Source of the DNA: a virus
Lineage: Duplodnaviria; Heunggongvirae; Uroviricota; Caudoviricetes
Reading direction: 5' to 3' (one strand)
DNA: 7,971 nucleotides
Virus record (IMG/VR): IMGVR_UViG_2600255005_000004
Location: 1 to 7,971 of that record
The position numbers and the translations under genes are program-made. Shown here one piece after another: positions 1 to 7,971 of this stretch. The stretch's first letter is position 1; every line of letters starts with the position of its first letter. Under the pieces are notes generated by a model. That model was not told the origin of the DNA, ran no database searches, and saw only the letters and a program-made list of their open reading frames with translations.

Positions 1-222
1 TTAACACTTCTGATAAATAATCCATTCAACACTCCCACAACAAAAAGCCACAGCAATCAAAAAATGAGCACGCAGAATCAAAATGCTCTCTAATCGTAAC
101 GCATTTTGAGATTTTTGATACGTTTTTTTGGGATTATGTAACGCCAAATGGTCATTTTGTGTCAGAAAAATAAATCTTAGTACCGAGAATATGTAGCTTC
201 CATCCTTCATCGTTCTATTCAT
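1..222 (-). CDS. hypothetical small protein (73 aa), possibly membrane-associated; coding status uncertain
   Basis: ORF whose ATG (220-222) overlaps the TGA (219-221) of the upstream gene in an ATGA arrangement suggesting translational coupling. Hydrophobic C-terminal stretch. Region is AT-rich, the peptide is not obviously protein-like, and the stop sits exactly at the window edge. Confidence 0.3.
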   Translation of the reverse strand: MNRTMKDGSYIFSVLRFIFLTQNDHLALHNPKKTYQKSQNALRLESILILRAHFLIAVAFCCGSVEWIIYQKC

Positions 223-2202: not shown

Positions 2203-2991
2203 TTACCCCCTGAAGCCTGGCGGGATCGCACTATCCGGTAACGAGACGGTGTTAACCTGTCGGAGTAACGTCTCAGGTCGAACACCTTTTGGCGCGAACA
2301 AGCCCTGGTATTCATTGGCGATGCTGTGTCGAATCACCTGCTCAGGTGAAAAACCCTGCTGGCGGAATTTTTCCAGCTCCCGTATCGCCCCGTTAGCGCC
2401 CTGCTCCGTTCGAATCGGTTTTCGCAATGCCTGCCTGAACTGAACCCACTCATGCCAGAGTGTTTCCGGCAACCAGTCAGGCAGCTCGATAGCCTCCGGT
2501 TCGAATTTTTTAGACGCTCGTTTTTGGCGAGGGGGATTTAGGGGGAGATAAGTATTTATATCTTCCTCTTTCTCTTCCTCTGGTAACGCTTTTTGATCCG
2601 TTTTTGTAACGCTGGCAGCGTTACCTTTTCGTTTCAGTTCTCGTATTTTTGTTACTCTCTCGTTTGTAACCGCCCGTTTTTTAGAGCTTTTCCCGTTATG
2701 GCGCTCAAAGTTAGGAAGCGACAACACACCATTAGTTTCGACCAGCCATCCAACCTGAATTAACGCATCAGCAAAACCAGCCATAAAAGTGATGCGATCT
2801 ATTGCACTTTTTGTAACGCCGCGAGCGTTACACTCTGCGTTACCGTCTATCATTTGTTGATCCGCCCATGCCCAGAAGCGAATGACTTTCCCTAATGCGG
2901 CATCTGGATCAATATTCAGAATCTCAGCAAGCCTGAATATTTCCGGCTTATCCGGCGTAATAACTTCGAGCTTTATCCAGTTTGAAGCCAT
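2203..2991 (-). CDS. prophage replication initiator, YdaU/lambda-O-like (262 aa)
   Basis: Sits immediately upstream of the DnaC-like loader, the O-then-P arrangement of lambdoid phages. AGGTGA RBS 6 nt before ATG 2991. K/E-rich central linker whose DNA carries GTAACGC palindromes and T tracts. Assignment is by synteny and architecture, not verified by search. Confidence 0.75.
   Translation of the reverse strand: MASNWIKLEVITPDKPEIFRLAEILNIDPDAALGKVIRFWAWADQQMIDGNAECNARGVTKSAIDRITFMAGFADALIQVGWLVETNGVLSLPNFERHNGKSSKKRAVTNERVTKIRELKRKGNAASVTKTDQKALPEEEKEEDINTYLPLNPPRQKRASKKFEPEAIELPDWLPETLWHEWVQFRQALRKPIRTEQGANGAIRELEKFRQQGFSPEQVIRHSIANEYQGLFAPKGVRPETLLRQVNTVSLPDSAIPPGFRG
2606..2624. repeat. 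19-bp palindrome GTAACGCTggcAGCGTTAC (copy 1, inside initiator coding sequence)
   Basis: Perfect 8-bp inverted arms read directly. Sits in a cluster of GTAAC/GTTAC half-sites with T tracts between 2583 and 2670. Confidence 0.7.
2813..2831. repeat. 19-bp palindrome GTAACGCcgcgaGCGTTAC (copy 2, inside initiator coding sequence)
   Basis: 7-bp perfect arms with flanking T...A; an extra GCGTTAC half-site lies at 2837-2843. Confidence 0.7.
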
Positions 2992-3004
2992 TTGTTTTCA
3001 CCTT

Positions 3005-3023
3005 GTAACGCTCGCAGCGTTAC
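3005..3023. repeat. 19-bp palindrome GTAACGCTcgcAGCGTTAC (copy 3, in the ydaT-ydaU intergenic region, 14 bp upstream of the initiator ATG)
   Basis: Perfect 8-bp arms, extendable to 9 bp (TGTAACGCT / AGCGTTACA). Same motif as copies 1 and 2 at roughly 200-bp spacing. Confidence 0.7.
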
Positions 3024-6600: not shown

Positions 6601-7971
6601 ATGAGCACAAAACCACTCTTCCTGTTACGGAAAGCGAAAAAATCATCCGGTGAACCTGACGTCGTCCTGTGGGCAAGCGACGATTTTGAATCGACCTGTG
6701 CCACTCTGGACTACCTGATCGTTAAGTCAGGTAAAAAACTGAGCAACTATTTTAAAGCTGTTGCCACAAATTTTCCTGTCGTTAATGACCTTCCCCCTGA
6801 AGGTGAGATCGATTTTACCTGGAGTGAACGCTATCAACTCAGCAAAGACTCCATGACATGGGAACTAAAACCGGGAGCAGCGCCAGACGACGTTCACCAC
6901 CAGGATAATGCTCAAGAAACCAACGAACTGGCGGGAGGCCAGGAAGAAAACGCGCAGGCAGACGCCCACGAGGATTGCCAGGATTGCGAAGTCTCTGTAG
7001 CCACTTTGCGGTTCACACAGCGTCTTCTGCACATTTTTACGTATGCGGCCGGGGATCGGAAATACCTGCATCATGCCACCCGAGAACAACGCGAACACAT
7101 TACTGCTCTTGAGATGGATCAGGAAAACAGCTATGTCCAGAATCTGCTGTTGGCCATACGCGGCATGGCAGAACCGACAACTCTGGATAATGCCGCCCTG
7201 CTCCACCTGACTGATGCAATTAAGGCAGTTTTCTCTATCACTAAAAAACATCAGCCCTATGAATTTAAGAATTTCATTTCAGCCTGGCTGGATACCGAAC
7301 ACATTGATCGCGGTCTTCTGACAAAAGAATGGCGAAAAGGGAATCGTGTTTCACGCATCACTCGCACGGCTTCCGGTGCTAATGCTGGCGGCGGGAACCT
7401 CACAGATCGCGGCGAAGGTTTCGTCCACGATCTGACGTCACTGGCGCGCGATATAGCCACTGGCGTACTGGCCCGTTCAATGGACGTGGACATCTATAAC
7501 CTTCATCCGGCACACGCTAAACGCATTGAGGAAATTATCGCTGAAAATAAACCGCCCTTTTCTGTTTTCCGCGACAAATTCATCACCATGCCTGGCGGGC
7601 TGGATTATTCCCGCGCCATCGTGGTTGCGTCCGTGAAAGAAGCACCAATTGGGATCGAGGTCATCCCCGCTCACGTCACTGCATATCTGAACAAAGTACT
7701 GACTGAAACCGATCATGCCAACCCTGATCCGGAAATCGTGGATATTGCCTGCGGTCGCTCCTCTGCCCCGATGCCGCAGCGAGTAACAGAAGAAGGAAAA
7801 CAGGATGATGAAGAAAAACTGCAACCATCTGGAACAACGGCAGCGTTTTTATGCCTGGCGAATTGCCTGTTCAACCTCAAAGCGATTTGTCACTTTGCTG
7901 TCGATTTTCACGTAAGCCGAATGTTCTTCTTCTGCAATCAACACTTCTTTGACGCCAGCCGTTTCCAGTAA
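6601..7971 (+). pseudogene. recE: recE (exonuclease VIII) N-terminal fragment, disrupted after about codon 411; the remaining ORF is antisense read-through of a convergent gene
   Basis: N-terminus [26 protein letters not shown]... and the segment [38 protein letters not shown]... match RecE of Rac as recalled. After ...EEKLQPSG (about 7833) the translation turns Cys/Phe-rich and junk-like while the opposite strand encodes a clean protein C-terminus. The C-terminal nuclease domain of the roughly 866-aa RecE is absent. Confidence 0.7.
7849..7971 (-). CDS. 3' end (last 40 codons) of an unidentified convergent gene; the gene start lies beyond the window
   Basis: Minus-strand frame reads ...[40 protein letters not shown] with stop at 7849-7851. 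Soluble-protein-like composition, while the sense recE frame degenerates in the same interval. Confidence 0.45.

Follow-up and report, generated by a model that had tools for sequence, protein, structure and literature searches.

The recE-yajR junction in the Escherichia sp. TW11588 draft genome is most likely an assembly join

The stretch of viral DNA analysed here (the window, 7,971 nucleotides in all) ends with a prophage recE gene that stops making sense abruptly, right next to the 3' end of a gene on the opposite strand. The junction between the two exists in the deposited record, but we think it most likely that it is absent from the organism and was produced by assembly or concatenation, an estimate that also takes in a lesser variant, with contaminating E. 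coli DNA as the origin of the prophage piece. We favour this reading because the record holds three blunt, signature-free joins within 21 kb, because one of them truncates tyrS, because the sequence is a gap-free contig of near-whole-chromosome size, and because the junction is unique to this one record. The joins themselves were, we infer, made during assembly or during construction of a pseudo-molecule.

The window corresponds to positions 3401-11371 of a longer locus (L003, whose coordinates are given below wherever they are so marked), which in turn represents positions 1,964,907-1,986,277 of AEMF01000001.1 (GCA_000208585.2). This is a single 'contig' (4.46 Mb; 4,463,584 bp) from an old draft assembly of Escherichia sp. 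TW11588, and such a length from an early draft, taken together with the early accession, suggests a constructed pseudo-molecule. The AEMF accession is that of TW11588, a strain of cryptic clade IV (PMC7716201, Table A1), now named E. ruysiae. Clade IV shares about 92.5% average nucleotide identity (ANI) with E. coli, which accounts for the ~94% identity to E. coli that is met repeatedly below among the host genes. The features around the junction, in window coordinates, are as follows.

6601..7843, plus strand: 5' part of recE (1243 nt, codons 1-414 plus 1 nt), encoding the N-terminal Exonuc_VIII domain with some of the linker region, without the nuclease domain.
7843..7971, plus strand: tail of the chimeric ORF (42 codons plus stop), Cys/Phe-rich, an antisense read-through of yajR.
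7843..7844 (L003 11243/11244), no strand: blunt junction between recE and yajR-side DNA, placed by a three-way comparison involving intact recE and the yajQ-yajR spacer of both E. coli and the E. ruysiae type strain.
7844..7848, minus strand: AAACG as read on that strand, the 5 nt found after the yajR stop codon in the native arrangement; the E. ruysiae type strain (L007) aligns up to exactly this limit.
7849..7971, minus strand: 3' end of yajR (last 40 codons, from the C-terminal YAM domain, plus a TAA stop at 7851-7849), the gene running on past the window edge.

On the prophage side, the plus-strand ORF at 6601-7971 spans 456 codons and is derived from recE up to 7843, which includes the first base of codon 415. 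Indeed, 6601-7843 matches the recE of E. coli strain Yu5 (L001) at 100% identity, and megablast identity to E. coli Rac-type prophages stops at query base 1444, which is window position 7843, so that alignment to intact recE does map the breakpoint to a sharp limit. The original prediction had placed the loss of RecE sense near codon 411, at about 7833; the abruptness of that loss stands, but the exact limit is at codon 414 (7843), about 10 nt further on. With a slash marking the break, intact recE reads ...ACGGCAG/ATGAACAGGGAG... (TTADEQGE... in protein), whereas the window reads ...ACGGCAG/CGTTTTTATGCC..., and beyond this point the intact RecE protein continues as ...TTADEQGEAETMEPD..., unlike the tail of the window ORF. 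Since intact RecE carries on with other sequence, the 42-codon tail is not RecE, just as had been suspected, and it is simply the antisense of yajR. The protein that would result is chimeric, and an exact match to it was found in AEMF01000001.1 only.

The domain content tells the same story of an interrupted gene. A Pfam search of the window ORF returned PF06630 (N-terminal Exonuc_VIII) at residues 2-182 (E = 2.7e-68), and PF12684/DUF3799, the C-terminal PD-(D/E)XK nuclease, was absent from its 456 residues, whereas intact RecE from Yu5 has both, with PF12684 at residues 632-867. It is the PF12684/DUF3799 PD-(D/E)XK domain that carries the exonuclease activity of RecE, and the proposal that recE is left at the break without its nuclease domain was right. 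The partner gene recT is also missing after recE in L003, where yajR stands instead, while recT lies downstream of recE in E. coli Yu5, in M18 and in nine other places that extend past recE.

What, then, is the convergent gene? The minus strand from 7971 to 7852 encodes 40 residues, 39 of which are identical to the solved YAM domain of YajR (E = 2e-19; PDB 4q2l, 2ru9 and 3wdo), so the unrelated protein C-terminus that was read from the opposite strand is real. Annotation to the right of the window confirms that it has both homologues and an upstream coding continuation: yajR is complete in L003 (11249-12613), and its 454-residue product contains MFS_1 and YajR_YAM domains (PF07690 at residues 20-354; PF21987 at 94.4 bits). 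Of 5426 complete E. coli genomes, 5293 have a yajR match to the 128 nt past the junction, at ~94% identity. Moving rightwards from the junction, yajR is followed by cyoE-D-C-B-A and then by ampG, which is the native order, and the whole yajR-cyoEDCBA-ampG segment is collinear with E. coli (94.9% identity over 7754 nt). Against the E. ruysiae type strain, the yajR-side DNA is 99.986% identical over 7370 nt. Given this near-universal presence in E. coli, the native cyo-ampG neighbours and the species-level identity to E. ruysiae, the partner gene is, as judged from its sequence and context, the host's own core MFS transporter gene yajR, and not foreign, cargo or defence DNA.

This bears directly on one explanation of the junction, which holds that accessory DNA of foreign origin entered the prophage's recombination module at a deletion or insertion endpoint, and that the convergent gene is part of an island carrying cargo or defence functions. 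There are good reasons why such an idea might be entertained, since prophage early regions do carry defence cargo (the present prophage has iteA/iteS and sieB) and the recE nuclease domain is indeed lost at the break. It is nonetheless refuted as far as the partner is concerned by the identity of yajR and of its cyo-ampG neighbours, the gene sitting at its usual locus beside cyoE in those 5293 of 5426 E. coli genomes, and by the near-perfect match to the type strain; we give this explanation almost no weight. Between the junction and the next blunt join to the right, we found no accessory or defence genes.

At the level of single bases, the junction is as sharp as had been predicted, with a blunt break at 7843/7844. 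The close approach of recE to the convergent stop also proved correct, but the gap is 5 nt (7848-7844) and not the ~15 bp first proposed. Identity with the E. ruysiae type strain extends through window position 7844, 5 nt beyond the yajR stop; past this breakpoint the type strain continues with AGGCTAAATT, then a REP element and then convergent yajQ, whereas TW11588 continues with recE. Microhomology at the join amounts to 0 nt when measured against the conspecific type strain; with E. coli as the reference it is 1 nt. The flanks of the joins were also examined for repeats, direct or inverted, for target-site duplications and for att cores, and none was found, which disposes of the suggestion that att-like sequences or direct repeats might flank the junction.

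Several more specific origins for the break were considered and set aside. An att site or integration boundary does not fit, because no direct repeats flank the prophage piece of 10.7 kb, no integrase is present within L003, the integrase end of the prophage being missing, and the break falls inside recE, about 4.2 kb short of the position of intR/ttcA in intact relatives. An IS-mediated event was rejected because there is no IS near the recE-yajR join. We also asked whether known sequence boundaries coincide with the two sides of the break. A contig end at a mosaic or repeat boundary within recE is not supported, since over the stretch from -500 to +900 nt relative to this point eight intact recE alleles are uniformly 96-99% alike, and a contig end exactly at the REP repeat is an approximate fit only, since the yajR-side break lies ~9 nt outside the REP element and not within it.

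The junction was sought in four collections. None of 5426 complete E. coli genomes covers at least 80% of a 252-nt query spanning the recE-yajR junction, no exact match was found among 185,579 GTDB species representatives, and the junction was not found in IMG/VR or in JGI metagenome contigs. At the corresponding site, the E. ruysiae type strain has the native REP-yajQ arrangement. In addition, iteS and recE are whole and lie inside a Rac-type prophage in the 10 other places listed for one of the prophage proteins of the window, with two exceptions, namely one iteS with an IS1 insertion and one recE of 782 aa (L093).

Further evidence comes from the surroundings. L003 holds three blunt non-syntenic joins within 21.4 kb (569/570, 11243/11244 and 18991/18992), of which the recE-yajR junction is the middle one. 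The outer two are as follows, in L003 coordinates.

569/570: left join, from tyrS nt 942 of 1275 (codon 314 of 424) to the middle of iteS; blunt, no microhomology.
18991/18992: third join, from the middle of ampG to 72 nt of plasmid-like sequence preceding ISKpn26; blunt.

A chimeric ORF of 333 aa (tyrS/iteS) has been called across the left join, where iteS lacks the final 538 nt of its 3' end. Microhomology was assessed at this join and at recE-yajR, in each case relative to conspecific sequence, and there was none at either. The 21 kb of L003 contain no N characters, and no linker marks the joins. The 72 nt that follow the ampG join are found elsewhere beside ISKpn26 on plasmids. A complete ISKpn26 lies beyond them (L003 19065-20265, with inverted repeats at 19065-19079 and 20251-20265), followed by island DNA. 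The element itself was discarded as the maker of the ampG join, its inverted repeat starting 74 nt after the join.

At the left join the truncated gene is an essential one. No tyrosyl-tRNA synthetase gene other than tyrS exists, and the C-terminal ~110 residues of its product bind tRNA. No cell could live with a tyrS that ended at codon 314, and the left join therefore cannot represent a living genome as it is written. For the same reason, along with the presence of two more blunt non-syntenic joins in 21 kb, the original view of the recE break as a biological deletion or insertion endpoint is probably not correct.

We have of course weighed the alternative that TW11588 underwent a real, strain-specific illegitimate rearrangement, in which a Rac-type remnant of 10.7 kb was translocated, or was left behind by deletions or inversions, so that the interior of recE came to abut the yajR terminator region, with removal of the yajQ-side DNA, the nuclease domain, recT, ralR, xis and int. 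After all, a public record does contain the junction, within a long sequence where yajR-cyo-ampG lies in native order to its right; end joining or illegitimate recombination can yield blunt joins without microhomology; and defective Rac-type prophages with truncated or fused recE do occur in nature, as in the 782-aa recE mentioned above and in the locus P0108 (L087), to which we return below. The other halves of the interrupted genes were also not found in the record, albeit by indirect searches. Yet at least three independent illegitimate events would be needed within 21 kb, one of them truncating the essential tyrS, and together they would unite three loci (tyrS, Rac/ttcA and yajR) that are mutually distant in the E. 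coli chromosome and far apart in every genome compared. Searches of other genomes and of metagenomes did not turn up the junction, the E. ruysiae type strain keeps the native arrangement here, and the sequence comes from an old draft in which 4.46 Mb stand as one 'contig'. On balance we consider a real rearrangement unlikely. It is similarly unlikely that the junction marks a relocated 10.7-kb remnant living 5 nt from the yajR stop codon and bringing with it the IteAS and SieB defence genes, kilR and a racR/ydaS-T switch; were it real, the consequences would be a 456-aa RecE N-terminal protein devoid of nuclease and transcription running antisense into yajR.

How might the preferred assembly join have come about? 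We picture AEMF01000001.1 as a set of shorter assembled pieces that would have been strung end to end, with no gap characters and out of chromosomal order. One such piece would be a Rac-type prophage fragment of 10,674 bp that reaches from the interior of iteS to the interior of recE, and the next would be a host chromosome fragment of 7.7 kb, which would start 5 nt after the yajR stop codon and finish in the interior of ampG. The truncated RecE and its Cys/Phe-rich tail would then be nothing other than a reading frame that passes from one piece into the antisense strand of its neighbour. Our conclusion is that the recE-yajR junction is most likely no biological feature at all, and it is neither an att site, nor an IS boundary, nor a defence island.

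Some observations do sit awkwardly with an assembly join. Searches with the missing protein parts of tyrS, recE and iteS, an indirect route, returned nothing from AEMF01000001.1, so the displaced halves of these genes were not located in the same record. The pieces also end away from obvious repeat boundaries (in a conserved stretch of recE on one side, and ~9 nt short of the REP element on the other), and a simple repeat-induced contig end therefore fails to explain their exact positions. Furthermore, the joins carry no linker or run of N, and natural truncations and fusions of recE exist, P0108 being an example.

The prophage piece itself deserves some attention. It occupies 570-11243 of L003 and is 99.4-100% identical to E. 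coli Rac-type prophages, with 100.0% identity over 3531 nt to E. coli strains M1, M3, M18 and others. Near-identical prophages are found in E. coli strains from mice, humans and water, while identity to E. coli drops to ~94% in the host genes that flank the piece. This contrast, which is one of sequence identity, would indicate either a very recent transfer into clade IV or an origin of the piece outside TW11588. The second of these leads to a variant of the assembly explanation, in which the prophage piece came from contaminating E. coli DNA: assembly at low coverage would have left it as a short contig that ends arbitrarily, later to be strung together with contigs of the host. Both the identity contrast (with the recE part matching Yu5 perfectly) and the position of the ends of the piece, within genes and off repeats, speak for contamination, but the ready movement of Rac-type prophages between Escherichia lineages makes such near-identity unremarkable, and since the host pieces likewise end in mid-gene (tyrS, ampG), the prophage piece does not stand out by its arbitrary ends. 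We rate contamination as a quite improbable source of the piece.

Upstream of recE, the genes run in the order ydaV, ydaU-like, ydaT, ydaS-like, racR-like, ydaF, sieB, kilR, ydaE and racC-like. An IteA/IteS anti-phage pair (AAA ATPase and S8 peptidase, according to the annotation of E. coli relatives) lies at L003 560-3425, and window positions 1-25 are the 5' end of iteA. We also observed a palindrome, TGTAACGC-N4-GCGTTACA, that occurs three times at a spacing of ~200 nt (window 2601-2624, 2808-2831 and 3000-3023), with two copies inside a ydaU-like replication gene of 262 aa (2203-2991, minus strand) and the third a short way upstream of that gene; the Rac-type replication module may use these three sites as iterons or operators.

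Why should any of this matter beyond one odd reading frame? AEMF01000001.1 serves as a clade IV reference in comparative studies, and if it does consist of unordered pieces without gap markers, automated scans of it will bring up spurious truncations (of recE, iteS, tyrS and ampG), spurious chimeric ORFs (the 456-aa 'RecE' among them) and spurious synteny breaks or 'islands'. A genuine junction, for its part, would amount to a strain-specific scar of prophage decay beside a core transporter gene, and to no new mechanism.

Comparison with known systems puts the two sides of the junction, and the junction itself, into perspective. Relative to the RecE of E. coli Rac-type prophages, the first 1243 nt are those of Yu5 recE without a single difference and the upstream gene order is of Rac type, but here the gene ends at codon 414 of 883, and PF12684, recT, ralR, xisR, intR and the ttcA site are all lacking. 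The YajR side agrees with the characterised protein (PDB 3WDO, 4Q2L and 2RU9) in its YAM domain (39/40 residues), in its MFS_1 plus YajR_YAM architecture and in having cyoEDCBA-ampG next to it as in E. coli; it differs in that E. coli yajR is natively followed by a REP/BIME element and convergent yajQ, whereas here prophage DNA begins 5 nt past the stop. With the concatenation joins of draft records, the region shares blunt non-syntenic segments, genes cut in mid-frame, the lack of any recombination signature and the occurrence of several joins per 20 kb, but it differs from them in having no N run or linker and in piece ends that lie off clear repeat boundaries. A natural parallel is P0108, at L087 5736-7127 (Logan SRR25057515), in an E. 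coli Rac prophage at ttcA in which the 5' half of recE has been replaced: an ORF of 463 aa joins ~125 residues from the N-terminus of an MFS transporter to the nuclease domain of RecE, with a TehB-like gene upstream. Like the TW11588 junction, this MFS-RecE fusion shows abrupt partial loss of recE and an unrelated coding sequence fused in frame. P0108, however, keeps the nuclease half, its prophage remains at ttcA with recT-int intact, and its partner is accessory DNA within the prophage, whereas in TW11588 it is the N-terminal half of recE that is kept, next to a core gene whose native locus lies far away.
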